Positions 5,822 through 24,454 of a stretch of 64,000 nt of DNA are shown piece after piece. Positions within the stretch are counted from its first letter, which is position 1. Each line of letters starts with the position of its first letter. A program made the translations under genes and the position numbers. Under the pieces are notes generated by a model. The model did no database searches. It had not been told where the DNA came from and was given only the letters and a program-made list of their open reading frames with translations. Source of the DNA: an uncultured Rickettsiales bacterium (GTDB lineage: Bacteria > Myxococcota_A > UBA796 > UBA9615); contig CAZBDA010000002.1 of assembly GCA_964490445.1 (NCBI GenBank), positions 6,078 through 70,077 of the forward strand, in the 5' to 3' direction.

Positions 5822-6751
5822 TCAACGTCCGAGCAGTCGGGCGGCAACCCGAGCAACTCGTGGGTCCGGATCCGAAAGCAACTCCGCCAGGTTCGGCAGC
5901 TTCACGGTGGCTGACTCGTCGATTCGAGACAGCGCCCGCAACGAGTGCAGACGGACATCAGCCGAAGGGTCACTGAGCAACGGCAGGAGCGGGCCAAACG
6001 CGGCGCCGACCTCGCGCCAACCGAGGGCACGGGCAGCCATGGCACGAACTCCCGCATCGGCATCGCGGACAGCCTTGAGCAGTTGGTCGGCGTAGTCAGC
6101 ACCATCGCTACGCCAACCCACCGATCGGCAGGCCTCAGCGCGGACGCTTGGGACGTCGTCTCCCAACCCGAGTGCGATCCCCTGCCCTGCCGGTGCAGCA
6201 GCAGCCCGACGCATCGACCACACCAGCGCCTCGCGCACATCCGGCATTGCCTCGTCGCGGAGCAGCCTTGTATTGAGTTGGTCCCAGTCCGCGCGCAGGC
6301 CGATCAGCGCCGAGGCCAGGGCCGCGCGCAGCTTCGGCGACTCACCGCCATGAAGGAGGCGCTCAACAACGGCTGGACGAGCTGCCGGATCCCGGAACTG
6401 CGCCTGGGCAAAAATGGGGCGGCCTGCGCGGTCGAGGACAGGGGCAGCAGCACTTACCTCGGCGAACAGCGCCCGCCGATGCCGCCAGCCGAGGATCACC
6501 TCGCTCTGCTGGCGAACCCGCCAGTCCGGGTGCGAAGCCAGGGCCGCCAGGGCCTCGTCAGCCACGAAGCCATCACCGCTCAGCGTATCTCTTTGCAGCG
6601 AGTAGTCGGTGCTGGCCTCGTGCAGGCTGAGCAACCTCTCGCTGAGACCACCCTCGGCAAGAACACTCGCAGGCGCGAGCGACAGAGCCAATGCCGCCAC
6701 CATCGCGGCGACAACAAAAGGAGAACCGGGCCTCGCGAGCAGCGGCAGCAT
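5822..6751 (-). CDS. HEAT-repeat (PBS-lyase-like) secreted protein
   Basis: Signal-like N-terminus (MLPLLARPGSPFVVAAMVAALALSLA). Repeated ..D.D..VR..AA.ALG.. HEAT/PBS motifs. Abuts the stop of the upstream PAD gene. Confidence 0.55.
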   Translation of the reverse strand: MLPLLARPGSPFVVAAMVAALALSLAPASVLAEGGLSERLLSLHEASTDYSLQRDTLSGDGFVADEALAALASHPDWRVRQQSEVILGWRHRRALFAEVSAAAPVLDRAGRPIFAQAQFRDPAARPAVVERLLHGGESPKLRAALASALIGLRADWDQLNTRLLRDEAMPDVREALVWSMRRAAAAPAGQGIALGLGDDVPSVRAEACRSVGWRSDGADYADQLLKAVRDADAGVRAMAARALGWREVGAAFGPLLPLLSDPSADVRLHSLRALSRIDESATVKLPNLAELLSDPDPRVARVAARLLGR

Positions 6752-8448
6752 CAGGGTTGCTCCTCCAGCAGGTGCCCGGCGACTTCCCACCAGTTCGCGG
6801 ACGGCGTGCGAGTAGCATTGCTGCCGCAGTGCACTTCGCCCAGGCTCATGTGATAGACGGACCAGTTGTCGACGAAATGAAAATCGATGTACTCCGGCAT
6901 CATCTCTTCGACGTGCGCGATGAAGGGATCTTCATCCTGGCCGATCGAAGTTTGTGCCGTACTCCGCATGAAGGGATCTGCGAGAAACACGTCGGTCCGG
7001 TCCCCGCGATTGGTGACGAACATGTTGGCCATACCCGGAATCAGCGCCGCCACGTAGCCACCACAGCCGGGGGGCTCTTCGAACAGCGAGGGCATGCGCA
7101 GGATGTCTTCCTCTTCGAGGGCGAGCTCGGACTTGACCTGCTCGAGTAGCGGGTCCAGGTAGTCCTCCTGGAGTTCCTCGTTCAAGTAGCGGATGGCGTT
7201 GGAATCGAGGAAGTCGTCGACGTAGTCGAGATCGTGGCCCCCAGGGTAAGGCAGCGCATAGCGCGGCAGCGGAAGGTTCGGATCCATGGACTCCAGCAGG
7301 TCCCAGGCTGCACCCGTGTCGGACCACACAAAGCGAAAGCCCTTGGGCGACGTTGGGTCCGGAACGAAGGAGCTGACCTCGTCGATGTGGCTTACGCAGA
7401 GCCAGGTCGTGTCGATGCGGAAGGGATTCTGGACCGCCTGGCTGGCCAGGAAATCGGTGAGCTCTTCGTCTGGATGAAGTCCGTCGTCACCACCGAAGTA
7501 GATCCGACCAAAGGGATAGTGAACACCGTCTACGGTGACCGGCGGGCTCACTTCGAGATTCCCGAACGAGTCCAGAGAGTTGACGGACGAGGTGTCACCC
7601 CAGGTCATCACGACCCAGTCAGGCTGCTCCAGTTCGTCCTCGGGGTAGCGGTCCAGCGGCCGGTCGCGAATCGAATCGACGACAATGTCGTTGCGCAGCC
7701 CGGGAGCAGTGGTCAGACCGAACTGGAACTCGTCCTGTACCCAGGGATCTCCGCCGTAGGTTGGCCCATCGATTGGCGTGAACATGTCCCCGAGTACGTC
7801 CTCGAAGACTGCGAGCATCTGCTGGTTGTTGTAGTTCGGTCCCCCGTCGGAATCGAGTACCCAGACCTCCTCGGTCTCCTGCAGGTGGTGATTGAGGATC
7901 AAGGGCGACGAGGTCAGGTGAATCCGATCGGACTCGAGCACTTCATCCCCCTCGCGCCACTCCAGGGTCAGCGTCGCCCGGACGAGGAACTTGCGAAACT
8001 CCAGCCGGTACTCGATGTCCTCCTCGGCCGCGTGGACGCGATGCTCCTCGACGTGGCCACCTTCGACCTTGCCGAGGGCCACCCTGCCATCGCGCCACAA
8101 GCGCAGGTCACCCTGGTCGCCGCCCAGCACCAGGTAGATTCTCTGGCCTTCCTTCACGCCTGTGAACACGTCGGCCTTCAGCCATAGCGACGCCAGGTCG
8201 TTCTCTTCAGCGAGCAGCTCACCCTCATCCCAATCCACGCGGCCGTTCTCGTTGTCGTCATCGAGATTCGGGATCCCCACGAAGCCCGGAAAGGTGTGGC
8301 CCGCGCCTTGGGGATAGGCATCGGGGAGCGTGATGGTCACATCCGGCTGCGGACAACCGACGAGCAGGAGCCCAGCCCACAGCAATGCCAACCTCACGCC
8401 TGAACGCGGCAGCGGAAACTCGGTACTGGAGTCACCGATCGACATCAA
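6751..8448 (-). CDS. protein-arginine deiminase (PAD) family lipoprotein, eukaryote-type
   Basis: Lipobox LLLVGC|PQ. The C-terminal catalytic domain carries the PAD4-like motifs LDSFGNLEVSPPVTVDGVHYPFGRIYFG, TWLCVSHIDEVSSFVP.P.SPKGFRF and the catalytic-Cys motif GEVHCGSNATR. Confidence 0.8.
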   Translation of the reverse strand: MMSIGDSSTEFPLPRSGVRLALLWAGLLLVGCPQPDVTITLPDAYPQGAGHTFPGFVGIPNLDDDNENGRVDWDEGELLAEENDLASLWLKADVFTGVKEGQRIYLVLGGDQGDLRLWRDGRVALGKVEGGHVEEHRVHAAEEDIEYRLEFRKFLVRATLTLEWREGDEVLESDRIHLTSSPLILNHHLQETEEVWVLDSDGGPNYNNQQMLAVFEDVLGDMFTPIDGPTYGGDPWVQDEFQFGLTTAPGLRNDIVVDSIRDRPLDRYPEDELEQPDWVVMTWGDTSSVNSLDSFGNLEVSPPVTVDGVHYPFGRIYFGGDDGLHPDEELTDFLASQAVQNPFRIDTTWLCVSHIDEVSSFVPDPTSPKGFRFVWSDTGAAWDLLESMDPNLPLPRYALPYPGGHDLDYVDDFLDSNAIRYLNEELQEDYLDPLLEQVKSELALEEEDILRMPSLFEEPPGCGGYVAALIPGMANMFVTNRGDRTDVFLADPFMRSTAQTSIGQDEDPFIAHVEEMMPEYIDFHFVDNWSVYHMSLGEVHCGSNATRTPSANWWEVAGHLLEEQP

Positions 8449-8547
8449 GGTGCCCTCTGGGATTGCGGGTTTGACCAGAGCGTCGCCGACGCCTGACGAG
8501 GCACAACACGACAGCGGCGAAAGTATAGGGCAGCCATGGGGGTTTGT

Positions 8548-9504
8548 TCAGGAATTGTCGTGCCCGGTTCGGTCCTCTACAGCCCAGTAGTGCTGCTTCA
8601 TACAGAACACCGACCCACCAGAAAGCAGAAACTCGCTCGTGTCGAGTCCGAGGACTTCGAAACCTCGCTCGGTCAGCCAGTGAGTGACCCGCTCGGAGCC
8701 CTGCTGCATGAGGACGTGGCGACCGTCCGGGCTGTGGCCGTTGCAGGCCATCCGCATCGCCTCCTCCTCGGTGACCGCCAACGGTTCCTCGAACAAAGTC
8801 TCCAGCATCCGCAACCCGTTCTCGTCAAAAGCGTCCGGGTAGTACAGGGCGGTCTCGTCATCCAGCACCGACAGGCAGGTATCCAGGTGATAGAAGCGGG
8901 GATCGGACAACTGGAAGACCACAATGGGCAGGCCCGTCCAGGCCTGCAGGTACCGATAGGCCTCGGCGCTGCTGCGTGGCCCGACCCCAGCGTACAAGAG
9001 CGCCCGACCCGGGTGCCAGAGAGCATCGCCACCACCCTCGAAGGAGGGCACGTGAAAGGGGTTGAGCCGCTCGATGTGCAGCCCGGCAGCGGTCAGGAAG
9101 TCGGCGACCTGCACGGTCTCGGCCTGCCGCCTGCCCCACTTCATGATGGAGACCACAGCCCCGGGCTCAGGCCCGAGCAGCCCCGCCGGAAGGGGCAGAG
9201 CCTGGTTTGCCGTGAACACGAAGTCGGGAAGCAACGGCACACCGGGCAACACGTCGACGGGAACCCCCAACGACAGGTAGGCATCGTGCAGACTCTTCCA
9301 CTGACAGCGAGCGGCAAACCTGTCGACCCGCCCCAGGTTGCCGTCCATGTGGGGATTGATGACGTACTCGACGTCGAAGAACTCCGGATCAGCCATCAGC
9401 AGCCGGTCTGGGCGCGGCAGTACCGGGAGGTCTACAAGTCGAAAGGAGACGCCCTCGGCGGTGGTGACCAGTCCCATGGCCGAAGCGTCAGTCGGCTGCT
9501 CCAC
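8548..9504 (-). CDS. DDAH-like enzyme, amidinotransferase/guanidino-group-modifying superfamily (dimethylarginine dimethylaminohydrolase-like)
   Basis: The C-terminal motif LGLDTSEFLLSGGSVFCM matches the DDAH active-site end (DTSEY.K.DGGVSCMS). Size is about 318 aa. No signal peptide. Confidence 0.65.
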   Translation of the reverse strand: MEQPTDASAMGLVTTAEGVSFRLVDLPVLPRPDRLLMADPEFFDVEYVINPHMDGNLGRVDRFAARCQWKSLHDAYLSLGVPVDVLPGVPLLPDFVFTANQALPLPAGLLGPEPGAVVSIMKWGRRQAETVQVADFLTAAGLHIERLNPFHVPSFEGGGDALWHPGRALLYAGVGPRSSAEAYRYLQAWTGLPIVVFQLSDPRFYHLDTCLSVLDDETALYYPDAFDENGLRMLETLFEEPLAVTEEEAMRMACNGHSPDGRHVLMQQGSERVTHWLTERGFEVLGLDTSEFLLSGGSVFCMKQHYWAVEDRTGHDNS

Positions 9505-9525: not shown

Positions 9526-11460
9526 TTAGTCGGCGATCACCAGCAGCGGGTAGGTGATGTTCTGCGTCTTGCCCTCAAACGGCGGGAAGCGCAGCGCGTT
9601 CACCTCGCGACTGATGCAGGTGTCCAGAGCAGTGCCTGCGTAACGAGACGTGGTAACCCGCGCTCGAGAGACCTGGCCGCTGGGAGCGATCTTGAACTTG
9701 ACGTAGATCTTGCCGGACAGGTCCGGGTCACGGGTTTTCTGCGAGGTAATGCATCGCTTGATGGATTTGTTGCTGCCGATGATGGTCTTGATGATGAAGG
9801 GGTTCGGCGCACCACCCGACGACTTGCTTCCAGAGTCCTTCTTGGCACGCTTGGGCTGCGAGGTGCGTGGGGTCGACGAGGAGCGATCAGCCGACCGGGA
9901 GGCGACCGGTTGCTCAGACCGCCCGGAGGCGCTACGACGCTGGTAGCTCCCGTTAGAGTCACTGCCGGCGATCTCGTCGCTGGGCTGGTAATCCCGTCTG
10001 CGCGAACTGGCCTCACGGCCCGAGTGCGAGCCGCGCCGTTCCGGCACCTTGTCATCAAGTCTGCTCGCCGAGGCCGTTTCCTCGAGGTCTTCCAGGTCGG
10101 ATGCTGACAGTCCAGGCATCACCGGCTCACGGGCCTCGCGGCGAGTTTCACGCTCGCTGCGACGGCTGGAGCGCCTTTCGGCCTCGCGCTTCGCAGACGA
10201 CTCGGATTGCTCCTTCCGGCTGGACTCGGAAGCGGCGCCCCGCGCCGGAGTTTCAACCTCTTCGGCGGGCGGTGTCGCGACCGTGGAGGGGGTGGGCGTA
10301 GCGACCGCACCGCTACCACCTGCAACAGACGCCACCTGCACTGCGGGCCGCGCGGAAGTCTCAGCCTGCAGCCCCTCGTCGGACGAAGCTGCGTCGGAAC
10401 CATCGGAGGGGCTGTACAGGGCAAAGGAAAGGCCTGCACAACCCAGCCCCATCACCACTCCGAGCACCATCGCCGAGGGCAGCTTGGCCGGCCAACGGCC
10501 CTTCTCTGTAACCAGGGCAAGGGCCATGGTGCCCGCTGCGCCGAAGCCCGCCAGGAAGTACCCCAAAGCAGCGAGGCGGCCAGGAACCAGGATGATGAGC
10601 AACAATCCGAGGAAAGCAACGGCTCCGAGCACCCCCGATGTACCGAGCAACGGCGATCCCTGGTGCTCGACCTGGGTGACGGAGGTGTTGCTCGGCGCAG
10701 CCTCGCCCGACGGCGACGTATAGCCCCTACCCATCGGCGACGGCTGGGTCGGGGGAGCCACCGGAAGGGATGGCTGCGATGGCTGGGAGTAGGGCATCGG
10801 GCGCTTGGGGCCTTCCAGCGGCATCGCGGGAATGGCTGCTGGGCCGGCGGCGCTCTGTGCAGCCGCAGCACTCAACACCGGACCCGACGGAGCCGGACCC
10901 CGGTAGACCTGAGTTTGCGGATTGTCCTTGGCAGGAATCGGCGTCATCACGGCGGCACTGGCCGAGCCGTTTCCGGAAGCCGGCGCAGGGGTTGGCGACG
11001 ACATTGGCGCCGAACTCGGCGGAGTGCGGCTCGGAGGCTGGTTCAGACCCGGAATCGAACTGCCCACGGGTAGGGTTCGCGCCGCGTCGGATGGAGCGAC
11101 CGCAACGTCCGCGCCGGCCTGGGCGGCAGGACCGAGAATCGCGGCACTGCTGCCGCCCGAAGCCGAGCTCGGCGCGGAAATAGCGTGCAACTCTGCGGTG
11201 AGGCTGCCCAGGGAGGGCAGGCCGCCATTGGTCATCTGCGCTAGCTTCTCGATGTCGTGGGCCGAGGGGGCAGCAGCCTCGCCGCCGTCAGCGACGGGGC
11301 TGACATTGCCCTTGAGTGTCGAGCGAGCCGAGGCCGGATTGTGGCGAAAGATCACGATCTTGTGCCCGCAGCGCTTGCACGTGGCCCTGTTGATCTCCTT
11401 GACCAGCTTGTGGTCAGCGATCTTGTAGATGGCCTCGCATTTGTCGCAGACGACTCTCAT
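9526..11460 (-). CDS. MJ0042-type zinc-ribbon / TonB C-terminal domain protein (GltJ/AgmX-like architecture)
   Basis: N-terminal CxxC...CxxC zinc ribbon (VVCDKCEAIYKI...CKRCGHKI). Long Pro/Ser/Ala-rich linker, TM helices, a charged low-complexity region, and a C-terminal TonB_C-like fold (IYVKFKIAPSGQV...TYPLLV). Confidence 0.6.
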   Translation of the reverse strand: MRVVCDKCEAIYKIADHKLVKEINRATCKRCGHKIVIFRHNPASARSTLKGNVSPVADGGEAAAPSAHDIEKLAQMTNGGLPSLGSLTAELHAISAPSSASGGSSAAILGPAAQAGADVAVAPSDAARTLPVGSSIPGLNQPPSRTPPSSAPMSSPTPAPASGNGSASAAVMTPIPAKDNPQTQVYRGPAPSGPVLSAAAAQSAAGPAAIPAMPLEGPKRPMPYSQPSQPSLPVAPPTQPSPMGRGYTSPSGEAAPSNTSVTQVEHQGSPLLGTSGVLGAVAFLGLLLIILVPGRLAALGYFLAGFGAAGTMALALVTEKGRWPAKLPSAMVLGVVMGLGCAGLSFALYSPSDGSDAASSDEGLQAETSARPAVQVASVAGGSGAVATPTPSTVATPPAEEVETPARGAASESSRKEQSESSAKREAERRSSRRSERETRREAREPVMPGLSASDLEDLEETASASRLDDKVPERRGSHSGREASSRRRDYQPSDEIAGSDSNGSYQRRSASGRSEQPVASRSADRSSSTPRTSQPKRAKKDSGSKSSGGAPNPFIIKTIIGSNKSIKRCITSQKTRDPDLSGKIYVKFKIAPSGQVSRARVTTSRYAGTALDTCISREVNALRFPPFEGKTQNITYPLLVIAD

Positions 11461-11679: not shown

Positions 11680-12312
11680 GTGCCGCATCCAGGTGCCAAA
11701 CCACGCAAGTTCATCGCCGTCGCCGGCAACATCGGTGCCGGCAAGTCGACCCTGGTGGACTTCCTCTGCCAGACCTACGGATTTCGGCCGTTTGTCGAGC
11801 CCAACCTGCTCAACCCCTACCTCGACGACTTCTACCAGGACATGTCGAAGTGGTCCTTCCACTCCCAGATCAGCTTCCTGAGCCACAAGTTCCGACTGCA
11901 CATGGAGCTGATGTCCGAGCCGGCGACCGTGGTTCAGGACCGCACGATTTACGAAGACGCCGAGATCTTCGCCCGCCACCTACACTCCGTTGGCCACATC
12001 TCGGATCGGGACTTCGCCACCTACAACCACCTGTACGAGGCGATGCAGAAGGCCCTTGCTCCCCCTGACCTGCTGATCCGGCTCAATTGTTCAGTGCGGG
12101 CTCTACGCAAGCGCATCCGCAAGCGCGGCCGCAAGAACGAGCAAGACATCCCAGCCACCTACCTGAAGCAACTCAACCAACTCTATGATCGCTGGTTCGA
12201 ACGCTATGAACTCTCTCCGGTAGTCGAGATCAACACCGAGAAACTCGACTACATTTCGGATTTCCTGGACCGCCTCGAGGTACAGAACGCCATGGAGCCC
12301 TTCTTATTGTGA
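11680..12312 (+). CDS. deoxynucleoside kinase (dAK/dGK/dCK family)
   Basis: P-loop AVAGNIGAGKST, the DRTIYED..IFA motif and an overall ~210-aa dNK layout. Its stop overlaps the start of the next gene. Confidence 0.8.
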   Translation: MPHPGAKPRKFIAVAGNIGAGKSTLVDFLCQTYGFRPFVEPNLLNPYLDDFYQDMSKWSFHSQISFLSHKFRLHMELMSEPATVVQDRTIYEDAEIFARHLHSVGHISDRDFATYNHLYEAMQKALAPPDLLIRLNCSVRALRKRIRKRGRKNEQDIPATYLKQLNQLYDRWFERYELSPVVEINTEKLDYISDFLDRLEVQNAMEPFLL

Positions 12313-15272
12313 GCATCACCGTCCAGCTCTGCCGCACGACTGCACTGCTCGGCCTGCTCGCGCTGCTCGTGGCCGGCTGCCCGAAGCAGAAGGAGATCCC
12401 ACCTCCCGAGGCGCCCCAGGGCGAGGGGCCGATCGACAAGATCCTGGACCTGTTGGAGCGGGACCGCGACGACCTGAGCCTGCCTCGCTCCGAAGAAGCT
12501 GGTTACCAGTTACCGATGACCTACCCCGTCGTGGAAGCGGCGCTCTCCCGCCCCCTCGCTGTGCCTCCCTGGGCCGAGCAACTGGGCGCTCGCCTGGACG
12601 CTGCTGGCAACGCCGGACAATTGTGGGCGGCCCTGCGGCCGCTGTCGCCAGCGGGATCCGCAGCAGACCCACCACGAGGCGAGACTGAGCAGGCGGTCGC
12701 GGGCAGCCCAGAACCGCGCCTGCGTCGCACATCTCCGGCGGCGCTGCCGCGGGACGCCTTCGCAACCAAGCAGGCCGCCGTGCAGACAGAGCAACTCCCA
12801 GAGGAGTTCGTCACCCTACTGGTGGAGTTGGCCGGGCTGCTCCAGGACCTCGAAGCCGAAGCCGAGAGCTGGTATCGACTCGAGGGCTTGATCCGCCGAC
12901 CCAATCGCGCCGCCGAGGAGTTCTTCATCGACCGCTACAGCGGCGAGTTCCGCTTCAGGACCCATCCGGTTGGAGTGCAGCTTGAGTTCCTGCGCAGCGC
13001 CATGTTCATCGACCAGCAAGCGATCAGCCGTTCCGCCGCCAGGCTGGTGCTGGAACTTGAGCGCCTTTTGCCGCTGCTGGCAACTGCCGCCAAGGAACTG
13101 CCCGACAGCGGGGGCCGCCTGCTGCACCTGCCCACCCGACTCGGCCCAATCATCGTCGGCAGCACCGGTAGCGACCTGCACGAGGAGGATGCCTTCCTGC
13201 TCGTTGACCCCGGCGGTGCCGACCAGTGGCACAACAACGCCGGCTCCAATGTCGGCCTCAGCTCTGCCCTTGCGCTGGCCGTCGACCTCGACGGCAACGA
13301 CCAGTACCGGAGCAACCGTGGCCACAGCCAGGGAGCCGGCTTCATGGGCATCGGCATGTTGGTGGACTGGGGCGACGGAAACGACCAGTACACGGCTGGC
13401 GCGCAGAGCCAGGGAGCCGGCTTCATGGGTATCGGCATGCTCTGGGAGCGGGGAGGCAACGACTCCTACCGTAGCTATGGCTTCAGCCAGGGTGCCGGCA
13501 CCTTCGGCGTCGGCGTCTTGCTCGACGAAGGAGGCGATGACCGCGCAGTGGCCGGCAGCCGTGCCCAGGGATTCGCCTCCAGCGGCGGACTCGGCGTGTA
13601 TCTCGACCTCGCCGGCAACGACGAGCGTCGCATCGGCACGCCCAGCGGCAAGGAAAACAGCGTCGAAGGTGGCGGCGGACAGGGAACCGCCTGGGGGACG
13701 CGTCCCTTCCCCTGGACCAACGATCTCAGCCTGCATGGCGGAGTCGGCCTTCTCTACGACCGTGCCGGCAACGACCGCAATTTCGCACGCGCCTACGGAC
13801 AGGGCAGCGCCTGGTTCCTGTCGTTGGGCCTGTTGCTGGATCGAGCCGGCAGCGACCAGTACCTGTGTGGCCAGAATTGCCAGGGGAGTGCCGAGCACCT
13901 GGCGGCTGCACTGCTGCTCGACAGCGACGGCAACGACCGCTACGAGGGCAGCCAGGACCTCCAGGGCTTCGCCGACGACCGATCCGTGGGGATCCTGTGG
14001 GACCGAGGAGCGGGCTCGGATCTGTACCGACTCGCGGAACGGGGCCGCGTGAAACCCGCCGAAGTCGGCCGAGGGCAGGGCTACGCGCGCCAGCCCCACG
14101 CACTCGGAGTGCTGGTCGACAATGGCGGCGACGACCAGTACGTGTCCTTTCGGGAAGCTCTCGGCCACGCGGAGCCGACCCGGCACCCGGGTCGCAATCC
14201 CACCGCCCTGCTCATCGACCTGGCCGGGAAGGACCGCTACACAGAGGGACAGAGTCGTGCTGGCGCCATTCCCCGCGACAAGAGCACCTGGCTGCAAGGC
14301 GACCATGCCGCCGGACTCGACACTTTCGTCGCCTCACCCGGCTGGGACGTTGCCAGCTTCGAGCCGGCAGAAGGCTTTGCCGGGCTCGGTTGGAACCGAG
14401 CCCTCCTCGATCCTCCTCCCGCGAATGATGACAACGAGACCGCTGCTGGAAACACCTCCGAAGATTCCTCCAACGACGTCGCCATACCTGCTGACAGCGA
14501 CCGATTCACCCCCGACGGCGATGCCGTAGCCCGCTGGACCTGGCTGCAGAACCGATACCGAGAGCGCGTCACCACGGAGCCGACAGCAGCCCTGGAAGAG
14601 CAGGAGCTTGACCAGTTGCGCCAACTGGCAGGCAGCGACCCGTCGACAAGCGTACGTCGCGAAGCCGCCCGACTCCTGGTCAGCGCAGGCGACACCCTTG
14701 GCCTACGGGTGCTCATCGCCTCCCTTGGCCATGCCAGCCAGGACAATCCAGGTGGCAAGCGGGGTACCGGCGAACTGGGCGCATTCCTGAACCTTGTCAC
14801 AGGGACGGGGCTCCACTTCGACGCCGAACAATGGAGCCGTTGGTTCCAGTCCGAGGGCAAGGATCTGGACCTGGCGACTCGTTGGCCTGCCGTTGCGCTG
14901 CTGGAGGCCGCCGCGGCCTCGGCGACGGCCGGCGAGATCGAGAAAATGGCAGACCAGTGCATGCAGGCCCGCGAACTCCTTCCGGACGACTCCTGGATAG
15001 ACGCCCGATCCGGGGCACTAGTGGGCCACTGGGCCTGGGTACTCGGGCATCCCGAGTCGCACGCGAACCGCAACGCCGACCTGGCAGTGGAGTTGGCAAC
15101 TCTCTGGACCGTCTGGCACCCCGACACCGCACAATCCTTCATCACCCTGGCCCAGGCCTGGTTCACCCAGGGGGAGTACAAGCTCGCTAGCCTGGCGCTG
15201 GACAAGTCGGCAATTCTCGACCCCGACAACATCCGAATGACCGCCCTGCGACGCGCCATGGAGAATCGATAG
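12309..15272 (+). CDS. large repeat lipoprotein (N-terminal helical region, ~11 tandem ~27-aa G[ND]D.Y...QG.G..G.G.L.D repeats, C-terminal HEAT/TPR-like region)
   Basis: Lipobox LLVAGC|PKQ. Repeat units such as GNDQYRSNRGHSQGAGFMGIGMLVDWGD / GNDQYTAGAQSQGAGFMGIGMLWERG. A near-identical 30-mer occurs at 13329 and 13413. C-terminal TPR-like helices. Confidence 0.6.
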   Translation: MSITVQLCRTTALLGLLALLVAGCPKQKEIPPPEAPQGEGPIDKILDLLERDRDDLSLPRSEEAGYQLPMTYPVVEAALSRPLAVPPWAEQLGARLDAAGNAGQLWAALRPLSPAGSAADPPRGETEQAVAGSPEPRLRRTSPAALPRDAFATKQAAVQTEQLPEEFVTLLVELAGLLQDLEAEAESWYRLEGLIRRPNRAAEEFFIDRYSGEFRFRTHPVGVQLEFLRSAMFIDQQAISRSAARLVLELERLLPLLATAAKELPDSGGRLLHLPTRLGPIIVGSTGSDLHEEDAFLLVDPGGADQWHNNAGSNVGLSSALALAVDLDGNDQYRSNRGHSQGAGFMGIGMLVDWGDGNDQYTAGAQSQGAGFMGIGMLWERGGNDSYRSYGFSQGAGTFGVGVLLDEGGDDRAVAGSRAQGFASSGGLGVYLDLAGNDERRIGTPSGKENSVEGGGGQGTAWGTRPFPWTNDLSLHGGVGLLYDRAGNDRNFARAYGQGSAWFLSLGLLLDRAGSDQYLCGQNCQGSAEHLAAALLLDSDGNDRYEGSQDLQGFADDRSVGILWDRGAGSDLYRLAERGRVKPAEVGRGQGYARQPHALGVLVDNGGDDQYVSFREALGHAEPTRHPGRNPTALLIDLAGKDRYTEGQSRAGAIPRDKSTWLQGDHAAGLDTFVASPGWDVASFEPAEGFAGLGWNRALLDPPPANDDNETAAGNTSEDSSNDVAIPADSDRFTPDGDAVARWTWLQNRYRERVTTEPTAALEEQELDQLRQLAGSDPSTSVRREAARLLVSAGDTLGLRVLIASLGHASQDNPGGKRGTGELGAFLNLVTGTGLHFDAEQWSRWFQSEGKDLDLATRWPAVALLEAAAASATAGEIEKMADQCMQARELLPDDSWIDARSGALVGHWAWVLGHPESHANRNADLAVELATLWTVWHPDTAQSFITLAQAWFTQGEYKLASLALDKSAILDPDNIRMTALRRAMENR
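13280..14325 (+). repeat. intragenic tandem repeat array (~81-bp period, degenerate) encoding the GND.Y...QG.G repeats
   Basis: Repeated agccagggagccggcttcatggg(c/t)atcggcatg and ggcaacgaccagtac-type segments at regular spacing. Confidence 0.6.
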
Positions 15273-16297
15273 TGGCCCTCTTTCTGGAAATCGAAACCAC
15301 GCTCCATTCACTGCCCGAGTTGGCTTCTGTGCTCGATGAACTCGACCAGACCTTCGGCGCTACTGTCCAGTTGAACACCATCCAGGCCCTGGACCTCGAC
15401 TGTGGGGTTCGCAAGGTCTCCTGGTGTCCCTGGCCGGATGAACGAATCGAGTTGTTCATTGCCGGTGCCAGCACCCGAGGTACCGACATCATCGTCGAGC
15501 AGCAGGGCAGCAGCGTGCTGCTACGCGTGTGTCTGAAGGCCCTCTCTACCTGGACCGACTGGCAACTGGGAGTCGAGGCAGCCTGCGTGCTGGCCGATCG
15601 TAGCGGTGCCGCAGGCATCCTCTGCAGTGAAGACAGCGAGCAACTGCAGGACCCGGAGACGCTCCGGAAACGACTACTCGATGACGACGAGTTGTACTGG
15701 AACGAGTGCGAGGGTGGCGCAATGGGCATTCGCCGAGCGGTAGTCGAACAGGGCGAGATCGTGCGCATCGGCGGCCCAGCCGGACTCGCCGCCATTGGCC
15801 CGCGCACCTGGGCAAAGTTCGAGGGCAACCCGTTGGACGGCGAGGAACTGAGCTGTGTGATCCTCGATGCGATGCGCGCCAGTATCGAGGCGCGCGGGTT
15901 CGAAGGATTTCACCTCGCCAATCCGATGATTCTCGACGGTCGATCCGGACAGTCCGTGGTCGCCCTGCTGGTGGCCCCCGACCAGCCCACCTTGTTGCGT
16001 GACACCGAGTACCTGGTGCTGAGCGAAGACCTCGAGGGTGCCGCCGGAGCGCCGCTCTACATGCTGCCCTACGAGGACATCGACAAGGCATTCCCGGCGT
16101 CGGTCGCGTGGCTGGACGACCGCAACTGTGCGCTGGCGGCAATTCCGGCCGCGAGTTGGGCGCGCAGACTCGAAGAGATCAAGCCCATGCTCTTAGAGGT
16201 CGACCAACTTCTTGACCAGCGTCCTGTGCCAGCAATCCCTCCTGCCAGCCGCTCCGAAGAAGCCACTGCGACCGTTCGAAAGTCGAGTTCGGTCTGA
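15272..16297 (+). CDS. hypothetical protein
   Basis: 341-aa ORF. Its start coincides with the stop of the repeat-protein gene. No recognisable motif. Confidence 0.45.
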   Translation: MALFLEIETTLHSLPELASVLDELDQTFGATVQLNTIQALDLDCGVRKVSWCPWPDERIELFIAGASTRGTDIIVEQQGSSVLLRVCLKALSTWTDWQLGVEAACVLADRSGAAGILCSEDSEQLQDPETLRKRLLDDDELYWNECEGGAMGIRRAVVEQGEIVRIGGPAGLAAIGPRTWAKFEGNPLDGEELSCVILDAMRASIEARGFEGFHLANPMILDGRSGQSVVALLVAPDQPTLLRDTEYLVLSEDLEGAAGAPLYMLPYEDIDKAFPASVAWLDDRNCALAAIPAASWARRLEEIKPMLLEVDQLLDQRPVPAIPPASRSEEATATVRKSSSV

Positions 16298-16329: not shown

Positions 16330-18138
16330 ATGTTTACAGTCGCCAACCTGGGTCGTGTCTGCGACATGCTCGTCTCAGACGGCCTGATGCACGACGGTCA
16401 GATCAAAGACGTAATGGTCCGCTACTCCATCCAGGAGAAGCGCATCCTGATCGACCGTCGCAACCACTTGCGCAAAGCAATGGGGGGGCGTCGGGTCAGC
16501 TACGAAGTCGGCGAAATGGAGCTCATCGCCAGCTTCAAATTCCCGCTACTCGGCCGGGAAGGACAGAAACTCACCGAGCACCTGATCACCGAGTGCGTGG
16601 CTCGCCACCTGGCCATGCCCTTCCTCATCCCGGACCCCACCAAGCTGGACTACAAGTTGATCACCGGCACCTTCCCCGGGCAATTTGCCGAGCGCCACCT
16701 GATCATCCCCATCCGCAAGACCAAGAAGAGCGTCACTCTGGCGGTCGCCAACCCATTCGATACCCAGCTGCTGGAGAGCTTGCGGCGCTACACCGGCTCC
16801 GATATCGAGTTGGTCCTGGCCCCCAAGAGCGAACTGCTCAAGACGATCATGGAATTCCACGGCTTCAAGAAGTCCGTGGACCTGGCCGCACAGCAGTTCA
16901 GCAACGAGTTCGACGACCTGGGGAACCTCGAGGCTCTCTCGAAGATGAAGGCGCTGGAGGACATCGACGCCTCCGATCAGCCTGTGATCCAGGCCGTCTG
17001 GTTCCTGTTTAACTACGCCTTCGACCAGCAGGCATCCGACATCCACATCGAGCCCAAGCGGGACACCTCGGAAGTACGGCTGCGCATCGACGGGGTACTG
17101 CACCGCATCCACGTGATGCCGAAGCTGGTGCACCGGGCGGTGCTCAGCCGTATCAAGACGCTGGCACGCATGGACATCGCCGAACAGCGGCGACCCCAGG
17201 ACGGACGACTGAAGACCACCTTCAAGGACAGCGAGATTGAGCTGCGAGTATCGACTGTACCGACGGCCTTCGGCGAGAAGGTGGTCGTGCGGGTGTTCGA
17301 TCCCGAGGTCCTGACCCAGGAGATCGCACAACTCGGCATGTTCGCCCCCGAGCAGGAGTTGTTCGAGAGCTTCGTGTCACGAACCAACGGCCTGGTGCTG
17401 GTCACCGGCCCGACGGGCTCCGGCAAGACGACCACCCTCTACAGCACTCTCCAGTTCCTGTACTCGGCGCAGGTAAACATCACCACCATCGAAGACCCCA
17501 TCGAGATGGTCCGCGAGGAGTTCAACCAGATCTCGGTGCACAAGCGGCTCGGTATCAGCTTCTCCTCGGCGCTTAGGAACGTGCTGCGCCAGGACCCCGA
17601 CATCGTCATGGTCGGCGAGATCCGTGACCAAGAGACGGCCGAAGCTGCCGTGCAGTCCTCGCTCACCGGCCACCTTGTCCTGTCGACCCTGCACACCAAC
17701 GACACGGCAACCTCGGTGACCCGCATGCTGGACCTCGGCGTCCTGCCATTCCTGCTGTCATCCGTATTGGTAGGTGTCATTGCCCAACGGCTGGTGCGCT
17801 GCATCTGCGAGCACTGCAAGGTAAGCACCCTGCTCAACCACGATCAGATCATGTCCCTGAACATTCCTGGCGCCGAAGGCCGGGAACTTCGAGTCGCCTA
17901 CGGAGCCGGCTGCGCCAAGTGTCGCGGCACCGGCTACCGGGGCCGCACCGGCGTGTTCGAAATCATGCCAATCAACCCCCACATCCGCTCCTTGATCCAG
18001 CAGGAAGCCAGTGCGGACGCCATTCGCCGCGAATCGCTCGCAGAAGGCATGATCACGATTCGGGAATACGCCATCAAAAAGATGGCCATGGGCGTCACGA
18101 CCTACGAAGAGGTCGTGCGGGTCACCAGCGAGAACTGA
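16330..18138 (+). CDS. GspE/PilB-family secretion ATPase (T2SS/T4P-type traffic ATPase)
   Basis: N-terminal GSPII_E_N-like domain. Walker A GPTGSGKTTTLYS, Asp box, Walker B DPDIVMVGEIRD, His box LSTLHTND, and the tetra-Cys motif CEHC...CAKC. Confidence 0.85.
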   Translation: MFTVANLGRVCDMLVSDGLMHDGQIKDVMVRYSIQEKRILIDRRNHLRKAMGGRRVSYEVGEMELIASFKFPLLGREGQKLTEHLITECVARHLAMPFLIPDPTKLDYKLITGTFPGQFAERHLIIPIRKTKKSVTLAVANPFDTQLLESLRRYTGSDIELVLAPKSELLKTIMEFHGFKKSVDLAAQQFSNEFDDLGNLEALSKMKALEDIDASDQPVIQAVWFLFNYAFDQQASDIHIEPKRDTSEVRLRIDGVLHRIHVMPKLVHRAVLSRIKTLARMDIAEQRRPQDGRLKTTFKDSEIELRVSTVPTAFGEKVVVRVFDPEVLTQEIAQLGMFAPEQELFESFVSRTNGLVLVTGPTGSGKTTTLYSTLQFLYSAQVNITTIEDPIEMVREEFNQISVHKRLGISFSSALRNVLRQDPDIVMVGEIRDQETAEAAVQSSLTGHLVLSTLHTNDTATSVTRMLDLGVLPFLLSSVLVGVIAQRLVRCICEHCKVSTLLNHDQIMSLNIPGAEGRELRVAYGAGCAKCRGTGYRGRTGVFEIMPINPHIRSLIQQEASADAIRRESLAEGMITIREYAIKKMAMGVTTYEEVVRVTSEN

Positions 18139-18736: not shown

Positions 18737-20146
18737 CTAGTTCCCCGACCCGGTTCCTGGCTCGGCCGGCTCGCTCATGCCCATCAGCTTGCGGAAGCGG
18801 GCATGGCCGTGGAGGCTGCCCAGGTCGGGATCGTGACGGGCAAAACCGAGCTCCGTAAAGCCGAGTTCGATGGCCTGCTCGAGCATGTGCAGGCTCTTGT
18901 CCTCGTCGCCGTTGAGGGCGTACAGGCAGGCCAGGTTGTACGAGACGTAGACCGACTCCGGCTCCAGCTTGAACAACTCCTCGAGAAGCCCCCTTGCAAC
19001 ATCGAGGTCATGGCGACGGTAGGCCTGCAGGACCTCCCGGTTGAGTTCGTCGGAACGCTTCCACAACGCCAGTTCAGCGTCTGAAGGAGCCGGCCAGCGG
19101 CGCTCGCGACCCGCTACCATCTTCTGGAAGGGCACCGCAGGGCTGTCCTGGTACCAGTAGGCCACTGCGCCGATCCGGTCGGTCCGCTCGTTGTTCGAGC
19201 CGTGGTCGAGACGCAACTCGATGGACTCGTCAAAGGGCACCGGGTCCGTCAGGTGAAAACGGTACACGCTGCTGCGCGCCTGGACGCGGTTGCCCTCGTC
19301 GAGCGTCGTGCCCTGGAACGAGCCGTTGGTCTTGGACAGACCGAAGATGCTGCCGAAATAGTTCAGCGCCGGGATGGACGCGGGTCCCTTGTTCGGGTCA
19401 CCGTCCACCAAAAAGTGAACTGCGCCTGTGCCCCAGGCACCCGGCGTGGTGTTCTGAGCTGCTAGCGAGAGGCCAACGTACTGGCCGCGGCCACTGGCAC
19501 GGAGCACGGTCAACGGCACGCCCTTCTTGGGCGCGGTCTCCTGGCTGTACTGGGCGTGGAAATACAGGGTTCCGTCCGGCAGCGCATCCACGACCCGGTA
19601 GTCCACCTCCCAGCGCAGCTGGCGGGTCTCGTGGTTGCCCTCGTTGACGAGACTGATCTTCGCCGACGCCTTGAAGGGCATCTTCCACAGACAGGCAAAG
19701 GACCGTCCCTGGGAGTGCACAGCGATGGGCAGCGACTGCAGGCTCTGTCGCACCCCGGGCCCGACCGCAAAAAAGTCGCCGATGGGCGCCTCGACCGAAG
19801 GACCTGCAGCGCCATCCCAGGTGATGCGTACCAGGATGTCGCGTGGGAACGTGTCGGCGCCCTCGATGGCAATCCAGAGCCGGTCGATGACGGCCGGCCC
19901 CTCGATGTCAGCGATGACTATGGACTCACCCGGGGCCAGTACCGTCTCAGCGCTGTTGTCCGCCGAAGACGCGCGGCCGGGACGGCCCTGGGTCTGCTGC
20001 GTCAGCGCATCGAGAGTACCGCCGGACTGAACCTTGACGGCCTGGCGACCCCAACCACCAGCGCAGGCTGAAGCGGGAATGACAAGCAGCAGGAGCAGCG
20101 CGAACAAGGCGCTCTTGCGTAGAGCGGTGGAAAACGAAAGCGGCAT
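18737..20146 (-). CDS. secreted DUF2961/GH172-like domain protein with C-terminal TPR
   Basis: Signal peptide MPLSFSTALRKSALFALLLLLVIPASA. The central region resembles DUF2961 (..IDRLWIAIEG.., ..AVHFLVDGDPNKG..). C-terminal TPR (YNLACLYALNGDEDKSLHMLEQAIELG). The longer ORF-track start at 20374 looks like spurious upstream extension. Confidence 0.45.
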   Translation of the reverse strand: MPLSFSTALRKSALFALLLLLVIPASACAGGWGRQAVKVQSGGTLDALTQQTQGRPGRASSADNSAETVLAPGESIVIADIEGPAVIDRLWIAIEGADTFPRDILVRITWDGAAGPSVEAPIGDFFAVGPGVRQSLQSLPIAVHSQGRSFACLWKMPFKASAKISLVNEGNHETRQLRWEVDYRVVDALPDGTLYFHAQYSQETAPKKGVPLTVLRASGRGQYVGLSLAAQNTTPGAWGTGAVHFLVDGDPNKGPASIPALNYFGSIFGLSKTNGSFQGTTLDEGNRVQARSSVYRFHLTDPVPFDESIELRLDHGSNNERTDRIGAVAYWYQDSPAVPFQKMVAGRERRWPAPSDAELALWKRSDELNREVLQAYRRHDLDVARGLLEELFKLEPESVYVSYNLACLYALNGDEDKSLHMLEQAIELGFTELGFARHDPDLGSLHGHARFRKLMGMSEPAEPGTGSGN

Positions 20147-20204
20147 CAAAGGGGTCTCCGGCGCGAGGGTTCCGGAGCGGGCGCACCCCGGGACGCGCAT
20201 TCTA

Positions 20205-21029
20205 TCAAAGGCCAGATATGCCGTGTTCGCTATTGGCGACGAGCCGCTCCCGCTCTTCCAAAGCCGCCAACTTGGCCCGTTTCTGCCCACGTCGCTTCCA
20301 GGCGGCAACGAGGAACAGCACACTCGCAAAGCCCCAGAATGCGTTCTGACCACCCAGCAGCGGCACCAGGGCATGCCAGATGGTCATCCGCTTGCGCCAG
20401 CCCTGCTCCAGTTCAGCCAGCGGCCGGCCGGTAGCAGAAGCGACCGCGGACGGTAGATCCCTGCCAGCTGCGAGTTCCTGGATCATCGCCGACAGGACCC
20501 CCTCTCCCTGCCGAAAAATGTAGGCGACAAAGTCCACCGATTGCAGGTAGGCGAGGCGGGCCTGGCGACTACCCGTGGGCCAGCTTCGGGTAATTTCCTC
20601 CATCGGCAACAGCGAGTTGGAAACCGCCGCACGAACCAGGACCGCCTGGTCCGAGGGGCGCATCTCGCCGGCGAACAGCATCGCAACACCCTCCTGCAGC
20701 CAGCGGGGGGGGCGTCCCTCGTCAAAAACACTGCCCACCATGATGTGGCAGAGCTCGTGGGTAAACGTCTTCTGGATGGGGTCAGGGCCGGTATGAGGTA
20801 GCCCCGTACGTAGGTAGATCTCCCTCCGCACCGGCCAGGCAGTGCCCACAGCCCAGCTCGGAGGAGGGCTCGGCTGCAAACGGGAGAAGGACTCGAAGTC
20901 GGACGCCAGGATGACGTCGATGTGCTCGGGGATTGGCGTCCCCGTGGCCATGGAAATGTAGTCCACTGTGGACGGGCCGATGTCGGAGATCGCCTGTGCA
21001 AGGCCAGCATCGTGGTCGCGGTAGTACAT
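20205..21029 (-). CDS. HExxH zinc metallopeptidase-like protein
   Basis: HELCH motif (TFTHELCHIMVG). A C-terminal TM helix followed by a coiled/charged tail. An in-frame hydrophobic signal-like segment lies upstream with no start codon. Confidence 0.5.
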   Translation of the reverse strand: MYYRDHDAGLAQAISDIGPSTVDYISMATGTPIPEHIDVILASDFESFSRLQPSPPPSWAVGTAWPVRREIYLRTGLPHTGPDPIQKTFTHELCHIMVGSVFDEGRPPRWLQEGVAMLFAGEMRPSDQAVLVRAAVSNSLLPMEEITRSWPTGSRQARLAYLQSVDFVAYIFRQGEGVLSAMIQELAAGRDLPSAVASATGRPLAELEQGWRKRMTIWHALVPLLGGQNAFWGFASVLFLVAAWKRRGQKRAKLAALEERERLVANSEHGISGL

Positions 21030-21181: not shown

Positions 21182-24100
21182 TCAGCCCGCCGCTCCGGTG
21201 TGCCAGTCCTGCACCGACTGCACTTCGAAATCTCGCTCGGCCAAAGCTGCGATGCCGGTCACCATGGCATCGGCTGCCGCCAGTGTCGTCAGGCAGGGAA
21301 TGTTGTACTGCAAAGCAGCCATCCGAATGGCCCGCTCATCAAAGCGGGACGTTCGGCCCATCGGCGTGTTGACGATCAGGTCGACCTCATCGTTCTTCAC
21401 GTAGTCCACCAGGTTGGGCCGACCCTCGTTGACCTTGTAGATGGCCTGGCAGGCAATGCCCGCATCCTGCAGCGATTTCGCCGTACCGCTGGTGCCAATA
21501 AGGTGGAAGCCGAGATCACAGAGACGCTCGGCGATGCTCGGCACCTGCTGCTTGTCTTCGTCATTCACAGACAGGAAGACCGTTCCCCCGGTTGGCACTT
21601 TCTCACCGCCTGCCATGGTTGCCTTGGCAAAGGCCTGGCCGAAGGACTCGGCGATGCCCATGACCTCGCCAGTGGACTTCATTTCCGGCCCGAGCAGCGG
21701 ATCGGAGCCCGAGAGCTTGCGGAACGGCAGGACCACCTTCTTGACGGAGAACATGTTGGGCACCGGCTCTTCGCTGAAGCCGACCTCGGCAAGAGTCTTG
21801 CCGACCATCAGTAGCGCAGCGATCTTGGCCAGCGGCACTCCTATCGCCTTGCTCACAAATGGCACTGTGCGGGAGGCTCGCGGGTTCACCTCGAGGGTGT
21901 AGAGATTGCCCTCGTGGATGGCAAACTGGGTGTTCATGAGGCCGATCACCCCGAGGCCGCGGGCGAACCTGCGCACGATGTCGCGCATCTCATCGAGCAG
22001 CTCTTCGGAGACACCGTAGGCAGGCAGGACGCACGACGAGTCGCCGGAGTGAATCCCAGCCTGCTCGATATGCTGCATGATGGCTCCCACCACCACGTTG
22101 CCTTCCTTGTCGGCCAGGCAGTCGACGTCGATCTCTTCAGCGTTCTCCAAGAACTTGTCGATGAGCACAGGGCGGCTGGGATCGATTGCCAGGGCGTCCT
22201 GCATGTAATGGCGCAGGCGCTGCTCCTCGTAGACGATCGCCATGCCACGTCCGCCGAGCACGTAGGAGGGACGAACCAGTACGGGGTAACTCAACTCATC
22301 TGCGATCTCCACCGCAGCATCAACGCTCAGGGCCGTGCCACCGTGGGGAACCCGAGCCCCCACTTCACGAGCCAGGGCGAGAAACTCATCTCGATCCTCG
22401 GCGCGATCGATGGACTCGGGAGGAGTGCCGAGGATCTGGACGCCAGCCTCCTTCAGAGGGACCGCCAACTTGAGCGGCGTCTGGCCACCGAACTGGACGA
22501 TCACGCCCATGGGCTTCTCGACCTCCAAGATCCCCAGTACCGATTCCAGGGTCAACGGCTCGAAAAACAGGCGATCGACCATGTCATAGTCGGTCGACAC
22601 GGTTTCCGGGTTGAGGTTGACCATGACGGTCTCGAAACCGGCCTCACGCAGAGACAGGGCGCCGTGGACACAGCAGTAATCAAACTCGATGCCCTGACCG
22701 ATTCGATTCGGACCGCTGCCAAGGATCACGACGGTCTTATTGCCCTCCTTAGCCCCGGGAAGCTCGCTTTCGTCGCTCTCGTAGGTGGAGTAGTAGTACG
22801 GGGTCTCAGCCTCGAACTCCGCCGCACAGGTGTCCACCGCCTTGTACACCGGGACCAGGCCGTCCTCGATGCGACGAGCGCGCACCTCTTGCTCCGAGAC
22901 CTTCAGCAGGTGCCCCACCTGGATGTCGGTAAAGCCGTCACGCTTGGCAGAGCGCAACCCTTCGCTGGAAAGAGCCTCCAGGGAGCCCACCTCTCGCAAC
23001 TCTTCCTCGCGCTCCACCAACTGCTTGATCTGGTCGAGGAACCAGGGATCGATCCCCGTATGTTCGCGAAGCTCGGGCACCGTCATGCCGAGCCGCAGGG
23101 CATGGCGGAGGAAGAAGATGTTGTCGGACTGAGGACGGCTGAGTCGCCGCCGAATCGACCGCACCAGTGCGGCACGGGTCTCGGGCCCCTGGTTCGGATC
23201 GAGATCGATCTCGTCGTGACCGTCGGCGCCCAGGCCGTGGCGGCCCTGCTCGAGACTGGCGAGCCCCTTCTGCAGGCTCTCGCGGAAGGTCCGTCCGATG
23301 GCCATCACCTCGCCCACCGACTTCATCTGCGTGCCGAGCGTCGCGTCTGCCCCGGGGAACTTCTCGAAAGCCCAGCGAGGGATTTTCGTGACGACATAGT
23401 CGATGGTCGGCTCGAAGGCGGCAGGAGTCTTCTTGGTGATCGCGTTGGGAATTTCGTCGAGGCGGTAACCCACCGCCAGCTTCGCCGCCATGTGAGCGAT
23501 GGGAAAGCCCGTCGCCTTCGAAGCCAGGGCCGAGGAGCGGGAAACTCGTGGATTGGCCTCGATGACCACCATGCGCCCGGTCCGAGGATTGACACCGTAC
23601 TGGATGTTCGAACCACCCGAGGCGACCCCAATCTCACGGATAATGGCCAACGCCGAGTCACGCATGAGCTGGTATTCGACGTCGCTCAGAGTCTGCGCCG
23701 GGGCGACCGTAATCGAGTCTCCGGTATGCACACCCATCGGGTCGAAGTTCTCGATGCTGCAGACGATCACGACGTTGTCCTGCAGATCGCGCATCACCTC
23801 CAGTTCGTACTCCTTCCAGCCGATGATCGACTCCTCGAGAAGCACCTCACCAACGGGCGAGTTGCGCAGGCCCCACTCGACGATCGAACGGAACTCTTCG
23901 CGGTTGTAGGCAATTCCACCCCCGGTGCCGCCCATCGTGAACGAGGGGCGGATGATGGCCGGGAAACCCGTGGTTTGGACCAGGCGCTCGGCGTCGTCCA
24001 TGTTGTAGGCGAAACCGCCGCTGGGCATCTCCAGCCCGATCTTGTCCATGGCCTTCTTGAACAGAGAGCGATCTTCTGCCTTCTGAATCGCCTCGATATT

Positions 24101-24454
24101 GGCGCCGATGAGCTCGACGCCGTACTTCTCGAACACGCCGCGCTTGGCCAACTCGACTGCACAGTTGAGGGCCGTCTGACCTCCCATAGTGGGCAACAGT
24201 GCCGAGGGGCGCTCCCGGGCGATGACCTTCTCGATGGCGTCGGCGGTGATTGGCTCGATGTAGGTGGCGTCAGCGAGCTCCGGATCGGTCATCACCGTGG
24301 CCGGATTCGAGTTGATCAGGATGACCCGGAAGCCATCCTCTCGCAGTGCCTTACAGGCCTGGGTACCGGAATAGTCAAACTCGCAGGCCTGACCGATGAT
24401 GATCGGCCCGGAACCGATGATAAGGACAGACTCAAGGTCGGTACGGCAAGGCAC
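21182..24454 (-). CDS. carB: carbamoyl-phosphate synthase large subunit
   Basis: 1090 aa. Duplicated ATP-grasp halves. The N-terminus [29 protein letters not shown] is the CarB signature. MGS-like C-terminal domain. Confidence 0.95.

Follow-up and report, generated by a model that had tools for sequence, protein, structure and literature searches.

Protein-arginine deiminases (PADs) are the enzymes that produce citrulline in animal proteins, and the PADs of animals are cytosolic or nuclear. What is an enzyme of this class doing behind a bacterial lipoprotein signal, and with what does it work there? The question is raised by a locus in a 64,000-nucleotide stretch of an assembly titled as an uncultured Rickettsiales bacterium (GCA_964490445.1, contig CAZBDA010000002.1, positions 6,078 to 70,077), hereafter the window, in which an initial annotation had read the gene at 6751-8448 as a eukaryote-type PAD made as a lipoprotein by a Myxococcota-type organism. 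We find that the gene encodes a genuine PAD of a clade in which the gene for a HEAT-repeat protein is its fixed genomic partner, and that the two products probably form a calcium-loaded citrullination module outside the cytoplasm. The features of the PAD gene on which the argument turns are the following.

6751-8448, minus strand: PAD coding sequence (open reading frame list, PF03068 match, identity to P0001).
8353-8445, minus strand: predicted lipoprotein signal peptide, residues 1-31 (read from the sequence; lipobox conserved in relatives).
7906-8343, minus strand: PAD_M-like beta-sandwich, about residues 35-180 (AlphaFold2 model, PADI2 alignment, family conservation).
6766-7905, minus strand: PAD_C catalytic domain, a propeller, about residues 181-560 (Pfam, family alignment, PADI2 mapping, Foldseek).

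The open reading frame encodes 565 residues from a TTG at 8448 and ends with the stop codon TGA at 6751-6753. The ATG at 8445 is its second codon and the more likely start, giving a protein of 564 residues, and PAD residue numbers are counted from this ATG throughout. The 564-residue protein is identical (100%) to P0001, as called on 11 public metagenome contigs. Pfam family PF03068 (PAD) matches the window protein over residues 172-555 and model positions 3-395 of 395 (E 6.1e-65; 220 bits against a cutoff of 25) and matches all 57 aligned relatives as well, and a phmmer search of the PDB sequences retrieves human PAD2 (2e-44) and PAD4 (5e-42). A structure search agrees independently: with an AlphaFold2 model built on the 57-sequence alignment (mean pLDDT 89.9), Foldseek retrieves human PAD4 (E 6.5e-43, TM 0.74), and the best 50 PDB matches are all human PAD1-4. 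The vertebrate-like blocks quoted in the initial annotation are real: LDSFGNLEVSPPVTV has the same letters as in human PADI2 and is also kept in cyanobacterial PADs, and WLCVSHIDEVSSFVP and GEVHCGSN align with human WLTVGHVDEFMSFVP and GEVHCGTN. An NCBIfam scan gave no model matching the window PAD. With a match this far beyond chance, the identification of the gene product as a protein-arginine deiminase is confirmed.

The catalytic tetrad, which the initial annotation had singled out for checking, is intact. It consists of D238, H353, D355 and C540 (codons at 7732-7734, 7387-7389, 7381-7383 and 6826-6828, checked by translation), which align to D351, H471, D473 and C647 of PADI2 (D350, H471, D473 and C645 of PAD4) and are invariant in 57/57 family members. 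The substrate-contact equivalents W235, R260, R262 and H539 are all conserved; their PAD4 counterparts line the site and hold the backbone of the substrate peptide. At the positions equivalent to PAD4 R372 and R374, R260 is kept in 18/18 and R262 in 16/18 family members.

The architecture is one of two domains, a divergent PAD_M followed by PAD_C, without PAD_N. Residues 55-179 are all-beta in the AlphaFold2 model with pLDDT >90, and the mature protein begins 4 residues ahead of the first PAD_M strand, with no PAD_N domain before it. Pfam, read at E values up to 1, found PAD_M or PAD_N in 0/57 family members, so that of the three Pfam domains named in the initial annotation only PAD was matched. 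The PAD_M-like domain carries an acidic calcium cluster, N60, D62, D64, D71, D83 and E149, that aligns to the ligands N154, D156, E158, D166, D180 and E253 of calcium sites 3 to 5 (Ca3-Ca5) in human PADI2. In PAD_C the Ca1 ligand positions are Q237, Q241 and E298, and the Ca2 ligands E239, D257, S258 and D261 (PADI2 E352, D370, S371 and D374) are present and conserved family-wide. In actinobacterial, fungal and Myxococcus PADs the first two Ca2 positions are F/Y and R, and according to Cummings et al. (PMC8826395) only animal and late-cyanobacterial PADIs have calcium sites 2 and 4. The linker between the M and C domains, SSPLILNHHLQ, resembles the 'triple-His' linker of two-domain PADIs and is not of the APWIMTPNTL type. 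Catalytic competence and calcium binding of the window PAD are predicted from the intact tetrad and ligands.

The N-terminus has the layout of a lipoprotein signal peptide, with R14 and R18 in the n-region, LALLWAGLLL as the h-region and the lipobox L28-V29-G30-C31 (8353-8364). The mature protein is predicted to begin with a lipidated Cys31 (8353-8355), which Pro follows at +2. The lipobox seen in the initial annotation is not a chance LLVGC, since 84 of 90 full-length family members have a Cys after G, A or S plus a hydrophobic run; full-length here means a called N-terminus at least 25 residues ahead of the conserved PNLDDD motif. The family N-termini are otherwise unalignable. The six exceptions resemble N-terminally truncated gene calls, and the residue after the lipobox Cys is mostly Gly or Pro across the family.

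Some relatives (P0216, P0228 and P0235, and the N-termini of P0043, P0049, P0070, P0083 and P0111) carry, after the lipobox and ahead of the PAD_M-like domain, an additional Cys-rich somatomedin-B-like domain (PF01033). Somatomedin-B-like domains are disulfide-rich and otherwise typical of extracellular animal proteins, and in our judgement their occurrence in these relatives suggests that the proteins reside outside the cytoplasm. Among the reference sequences of the published alignment, the two-domain PADIs of fungi and actinobacteria also start with signal-peptide-like N-termini, that of Nocardia brasiliensis having an LSGC lipobox, and animal and three-domain cyanobacterial PADIs have no signal-like N-terminus. 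Judged from these N-termini, two-domain PADs may be exported in general. Cummings et al. (PMC8826395) do not mention 'signal peptide' or 'lipoprotein' in their main text.

A word-indexed protein search with the window PAD returned 911 proteins at E <1e-5, the named matches being 'protein-arginine deiminase family protein' of Nannocystales, Kofleriaceae, Paraliomyxa and Myxococcota metagenome-assembled genomes (MAGs), and relatives turned up in 313 species when one genome of each was scanned. The best 80 related loci, to which all counts of neighbours and synteny out of 80 refer, are from Nannocystales, Kofleriaceae, Enhygromyxa, Paraliomyxa and similar. A HMMER search of 1.84 billion representative proteins found 1,704 that are PAD-like at E <1e-3, and ~85 of these 1,704 clusters score >235 bits and make up the family of the window PAD, within which identity is 40-77% across Nannocystales, Kofleriaceae, Sandaracinus and other groups. 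The description of such enzymes as sparse and patchy therefore holds for bacteria overall and fails within part of Myxococcota, where they are common and diverse.

We placed the family on a neighbour-joining tree (300 bootstraps, the only tree method used) of a trimmed alignment that included 19 reference PADIs drawn from the supplement of Cummings et al. The window family is monophyletic in 100% of replicates, and 99% set the clade of actinobacterial, fungal and Myxococcus PADs apart. The three-domain clade of animal and late-cyanobacterial PADs excludes the window family in 90%, and a position of the family as sister of that clade gets just 62%. By BLAST, the window PAD scores 202 bits with Cyanothece, 164 with human PADI2 and 133 with Myxococcus xanthus, and 62-141 with actinobacterial, fungal and Myxococcus PADs. 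The label 'eukaryote-type' is thus only partly apt: the Ca2 ligands and the higher similarity to the animal and late-cyanobacterial clade support it, whereas the lack of PAD_N, the two-domain linker and a position that appears from this tree to lie outside the three-domain clade do not.

Myxococcota hold two unrelated PAD lineages. PADs of the Myxococcus type (Myxococcus xanthus DK1622, Chondromyces apiculatus) group with actinobacterial and fungal PADs and lack the Ca2 ligands; those of the window type are found in Nannocystales, Kofleriaceae and Sandaracinus.

What the enzyme works with is suggested by the gene directly downstream, for which two features are needed.

5822-6751, minus strand: HEAT-repeat protein of 309 residues (Pfam HEAT_2 2.2e-18, HEAT 2.2e-16).
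6410-6442, minus strand: signature hairpin of the HEAT family, residues 104-114, PVLDRAGRPIF (conservation, DSSP).

The HEAT ATG and the PAD stop codon share one base (TGATG), and the HEAT protein has its own Sec signal peptide, with FVVAAMVAALALSLA as the h-region and predicted cleavage after VLA32. By tblastn, 73/80 loci, spanning 40-77% PAD identity, have a HEAT homologue immediately downstream of PAD and on its strand; at L024 the homologue is upstream of PAD, and of the six loci that gave no match three end within ~400 nt of the PAD end. In most loci the HEAT gene begins -4 to +12 nt from the PAD stop codon, and nearly all copies encode a signal peptide or lipobox. In a reverse look-up, all three of the distant HEAT homologues followed (41-44% identity) come directly after a PAD. 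Three MAGs carry two divergent PAD-HEAT pairs each (L041/L061, L042/L065 and L048/L079), which indicates that the unit duplicates as a whole. Within those genomes the paralogous pairs share 48-62% identity in PAD and 39-43% in HEAT, and elsewhere orthologous pairs keep their pairing, with PAD and HEAT identities of 93% and 89% in one case and 85% and 72% in another. The HEAT gene is a fixed genomic partner of PAD across this Myxococcota-specific clade.

The AlphaFold2 model of the HEAT protein (pLDDT 94) is an all-alpha solenoid, and a Foldseek search with it returned only generic designed or natural HEAT/ARM scaffolds (alphaRep, E ~1e-6), with no functional lead. Ahead of the repeat array stands the signature hairpin, with the consensus PxxTRAGxxRF and, in the model, DSSP strands at 105-106 and 112-113. 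Its Arg108 (6428-6430) is kept in 97% of 70 orthologues and is invariant in 34 database homologues. In the literature searched we found no description of a PAD-HEAT link, and topics combining deiminase with HEAT, lipoprotein or Myxococcota yielded only papers on PPAD of Porphyromonas. Two apparent in-frame PAD-HEAT fusions among the related loci (L082 and L025) were set aside, as both contain stop codons.

We put the probability at roughly 0.62 that PAD and HEAT form a calcium-loaded citrullination module that lies outside the cytoplasm and acts on proteins. PAD would be exported via Sec, lipidated on Cys31 and tethered to the membrane outside the cytoplasm, where Pro at +2 would make the outer membrane or outer-membrane vesicles its likely destination. 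Extracytoplasmic calcium being plentiful, the calcium sites of PAD would be constitutively filled, and the enzyme could be active without the calcium-spike gating of animal PADs. Translational coupling through TGATG would ensure that PAD and HEAT are made together, as a two-component module that would turn arginine side chains of periplasmic, surface or foreign proteins into citrulline. The HEAT solenoid may serve as the substrate-recruiting or activity-controlling subunit, replacing control by calcium transients, and its Arg108 hairpin might touch the PAD active site.

Several observations weigh against this reading. The Ca1 position of PADI2 E354 is Gln241 here (E in 11/18 and Q in 7/18 family members), and D276, the counterpart of the PADI2 calcium-switch residue D389, is D in only 11/18. 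The PADI2 gatekeeper R347 is replaced by Pro234 (V or P in the family). Because D276 is not conserved in the family and R347 has become Pro234, calcium control cannot work exactly as in PAD2; with Ca2 ligands alongside a two-domain linker, Pro234 and Gln241, the window PAD is a mosaic of both published PADI types. For the pairing itself, the PAD and HEAT distance matrices are correlated (Pearson 0.68, Mantel p 0.001), yet only weakly so by rank (Spearman 0.17), so that the signal of co-divergence comes mainly from close relatives. It is synteny that points to a PAD-HEAT interaction. A fused protein, P0115 (799 residues, PF03068 plus HEAT_2), was considered as proof of a physical link and rejected, being a singleton among the 120 best matches that may be an artefact. 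Lastly, substrates other than proteins are possible, since a Streptomyces PF03068 enzyme was identified as responsible for lasso-peptide citrullination (Harris et al., bioRxiv 10.1101/2020.07.16.207027).

Much of the same evidence could describe an effector and its immunity protein, which we consider unlikely. PAD would then be a lipoprotein toxin directed at prey or competitors, for example via outer-membrane vesicles or outer-membrane exchange, and HEAT a periplasmic inhibitor guarding the cell's own envelope, its Arg108 hairpin plugging the active site as a pseudo-substrate. This would account for a HEAT gene that is tightly coupled downstream and has its own export signal, for paralogous pairs that co-diverge as cognate units with HEAT evolving faster (mean distance 0.65 vs 0.54 for PAD), for an invariant Arg on an exposed hairpin, and for a family without the in-cis gatekeeper Arg of PADI2. 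Gene coupling and co-divergence, however, fit an adaptor role as well as immunity, and PAD has no polymorphic-toxin architecture, being one conserved unit that lacks both a delivery domain and a variable C-terminus. The surroundings are housekeeping and uniform in G+C, neither a secretion system nor a mobile element is linked to the gene within ~10 kb, and no orphan HEAT appeared in the three look-ups. We know of no toxic effect of extracellular citrullination on bacteria.

A small exported substrate is less likely again: a ribosomal peptide, an arginine-containing lipid, or arginine linked to the cell wall or to exopolysaccharide, with HEAT as carrier or presenter. Myxobacteria are prolific producers of secondary metabolites, which speaks for such a role. 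So does the lasso peptide of Harris et al., the target of the sole bacterial PF03068 enzyme with a demonstrated product that we found. Against it, no precursor-peptide or biosynthetic genes adjoin PAD-HEAT in the window or in related loci, and the conserved residues that grip the backbone in PAD4 fit peptides and proteins alike.

Two further explanations are effectively excluded. A fortuitous lipobox or wrong start, which would leave a cytoplasmic PAD as in animals and cyanobacteria, is highly improbable in view of the signal and Cys kept in 84/90 full-length relatives despite their otherwise unalignable N-termini, the export signal that the HEAT partner also carries, and the same start chosen by independent gene callers on 11 contigs. 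Recent acquisition from an animal, for which the identity of LDSFGNLEVSPPVTV to human PADI2 might be taken, is more improbable still, as that block is shared with cyanobacterial PADs and the gene belongs to a deep monophyletic family (100% bootstrap, 40-77% internal identity) that lies outside the animal clade, has no PAD_N domain and, in the window, has the G+C of its host.

Set against known systems, the citrullination module combines familiar and unfamiliar parts. Human PAD4 and PAD2 (PF03068; PDB 1wda, 8r8u and 4n20) have the fold, tetrad, backbone arginines and Ca1, Ca2 and Ca3-5 positions in common with the window PAD, at ~36% identity over the last 330 residues. The window PAD differs from them in having no PAD_N cupredoxin domain, a PAD_M beyond Pfam recognition, NHH in place of TPN in the linker, Pro for R347 and Gln for Glu at Ca1, together with a predicted signal peptide and lipid anchor and a dedicated partner gene. 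The closest relative outside the family by score (202 bits) is the three-domain cyanobacterial PADI of Cyanothece, which shares the Ca2 residues E/D/S/D; unlike the window PAD, the three-domain cyanobacterial PADI has a degenerate PAD_N and, in the reference sequences, no signal peptide. One cyanobacterial PADI was shown to be active in vitro (Cummings et al. 2021, PMC8826395). The two-domain actinobacterial and fungal PADIs, including the Streptomyces albulus PAD whose substrate is the lasso peptide citrulassin, share with the window PAD the two-domain layout, a His-rich linker (THHH vs NHH) and a signal-peptide-like start, but form a different clade (separation at 99-100% bootstrap), with F/R at the Ca2 positions where the window family has E/D.

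Members of the window family have been seen before. The PAD of Sandaracinus amylolyticus DSM 53668 (43% identity, 414 bits) has the family motifs and lipobox, and that of Plesiocystis pacifica SIR-1 (39% identity, 339 bits) has the family motifs; both are rows in the 150-sequence alignment of Cummings et al. (PMC8826395, Supplementary File 3) and nothing more. In the literature searched we found no gene-neighbourhood or calcium-site analysis of this clade. In a survey of 837 bacterial PF03068 proteins, Harris et al. (bioRxiv 10.1101/2020.07.16.207027) described the genomic contexts as 'highly diverse', in contrast to the fixed HEAT neighbour of the window clade, a partner that their survey did not note. 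The functional analogue is PPAD of Porphyromonas gingivalis (PF04371), a secreted peptidyl-arginine deiminase that stays attached to the cell surface and to vesicles. Within the guanidino-modifying superfamily its sequence family is unrelated to PF03068; PPAD needs no calcium and leaves the cell by the type IX route, not as a Sec lipoprotein.

Upstream of PAD, three further features define the neighbourhood.

8522-8550, minus strand: sigma-70-like promoter match, TGAACA-17-TATACT (consensus scan; in the ~100-nt gap upstream of PAD).
8548-9504, minus strand: DDAH or arginine-dihydrolase-like guanidino-modifying enzyme (Pfam DDAH_eukar 4.8e-8).
9526-11460, minus strand: Zn-ribbon protein of 644 residues (NCBIfam GltJ/AgmX-type tail).

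The consensus scan found 2 sites in 6.2 kb vs 0.7 expected, and the match at 8522-8550 may, on this weak evidence, be the promoter of the PAD-HEAT operon itself. The DDAH-like product is a cytoplasmic enzyme with no signal peptide and has the C-terminal nucleophile motif GGSVFCM; among NCBIfam models it matches dimethylargininase (3.9e-61) and arginine dihydrolase (2.5e-51), both below their cutoffs. We considered and rejected this gene as a member of the module: it adjoins PAD in 11/80 loci and in L086, and is missing from L087 and L088, where the order Zn-ribbon, PAD, HEAT stays. It is probably a lineage-specific neighbour.

The 644-residue protein has an N-terminal MJ0042-type zinc ribbon, a low-complexity middle rich in Pro, Ser and Ala, and a GltJ/GltG/AgmX-type C-terminal domain, and is syntenic with PAD in the closest relatives. 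Its GltJ/AgmX-type tail, which is related to gliding-motility proteins of myxobacteria, is recognised by an NCBIfam model specific to that group. This tail, together with the taxonomy of the best 80 related loci, bears out the Myxococcota host proposed in the initial annotation. The predatory or developmental setting also raised there is speculative. The MAGs of L006, L009, L011, L014, L017 and others are titled 'uncultured Rickettsiales', 'Enterobacterales' or 'Enterobacteriaceae'. These titles are probably wrong, since in gene order these contigs match the myxobacterial locus of the window (GltJ-like gene, DDAH, PAD, HEAT and Ser/Thr kinase, at 50-77% protein identity).

Further along, the open reading frames at 12309-16297 and 16330-18138 (plus strand; 987 and 341 residues) have no Pfam match. 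They stand directly upstream of a T2SSE/MshEN secretion ATPase, are syntenic in L001-L003, and may be part of a gene cluster for pili or secretion that lies ~4 kb from the PAD operon. At 18737-20374 (minus strand) lies a DUF2961 protein (E 4e-59), and at 21182-24454 (minus strand) the large subunit of carbamoyl-phosphate synthase (carB), which serves arginine synthesis; nothing ties carB to PAD. The flanks are housekeeping (carB, TrkA, deoxynucleoside kinase, Ser/Thr kinase), G+C is even across the window, and a scan around the locus found neither tRNA genes nor traces of a mobile element. The PAD gene is a resident one, and nothing suggests recent transfer.

The enzyme itself is not new, as the family is annotated by name at NCBI and sampled in a published PADI alignment, and the gain in knowledge is to that extent incremental. 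New against the literature searched are the lipoprotein signal carried clade-wide, the HEAT partner, and the Ca2 ligands kept in a two-domain clade. A stronger proposal can be built on these, which we offer tentatively and would not ourselves favour: that PAD-HEAT is an unrecognised, Myxococcota-specific two-component system for extracytoplasmic citrullination, in which HEAT controls or directs PAD and Arg108 substitutes in trans for the gatekeeper, and that its clade is the nearest two-domain relative of the cyanobacterial and animal PAD lineage. If so, the calcium-site-2 switch would be older than PAD_N and would have arisen in exported bacterial enzymes.

For bacterial PF03068 deiminases, the sole assigned product that we found is a lasso peptide (Harris et al.). 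The clade described here has a fixed partner with its own export signal, a conserved lipid-anchor signal and culturable members in Sandaracinus, Enhygromyxa, Plesiocystis and Paraliomyxa, so that substrates and regulation can be studied directly. As a large bacterial clade of two-domain enzymes has the Ca2 ligands, the calcium switch may be older than the three-domain layout acquired by animals.

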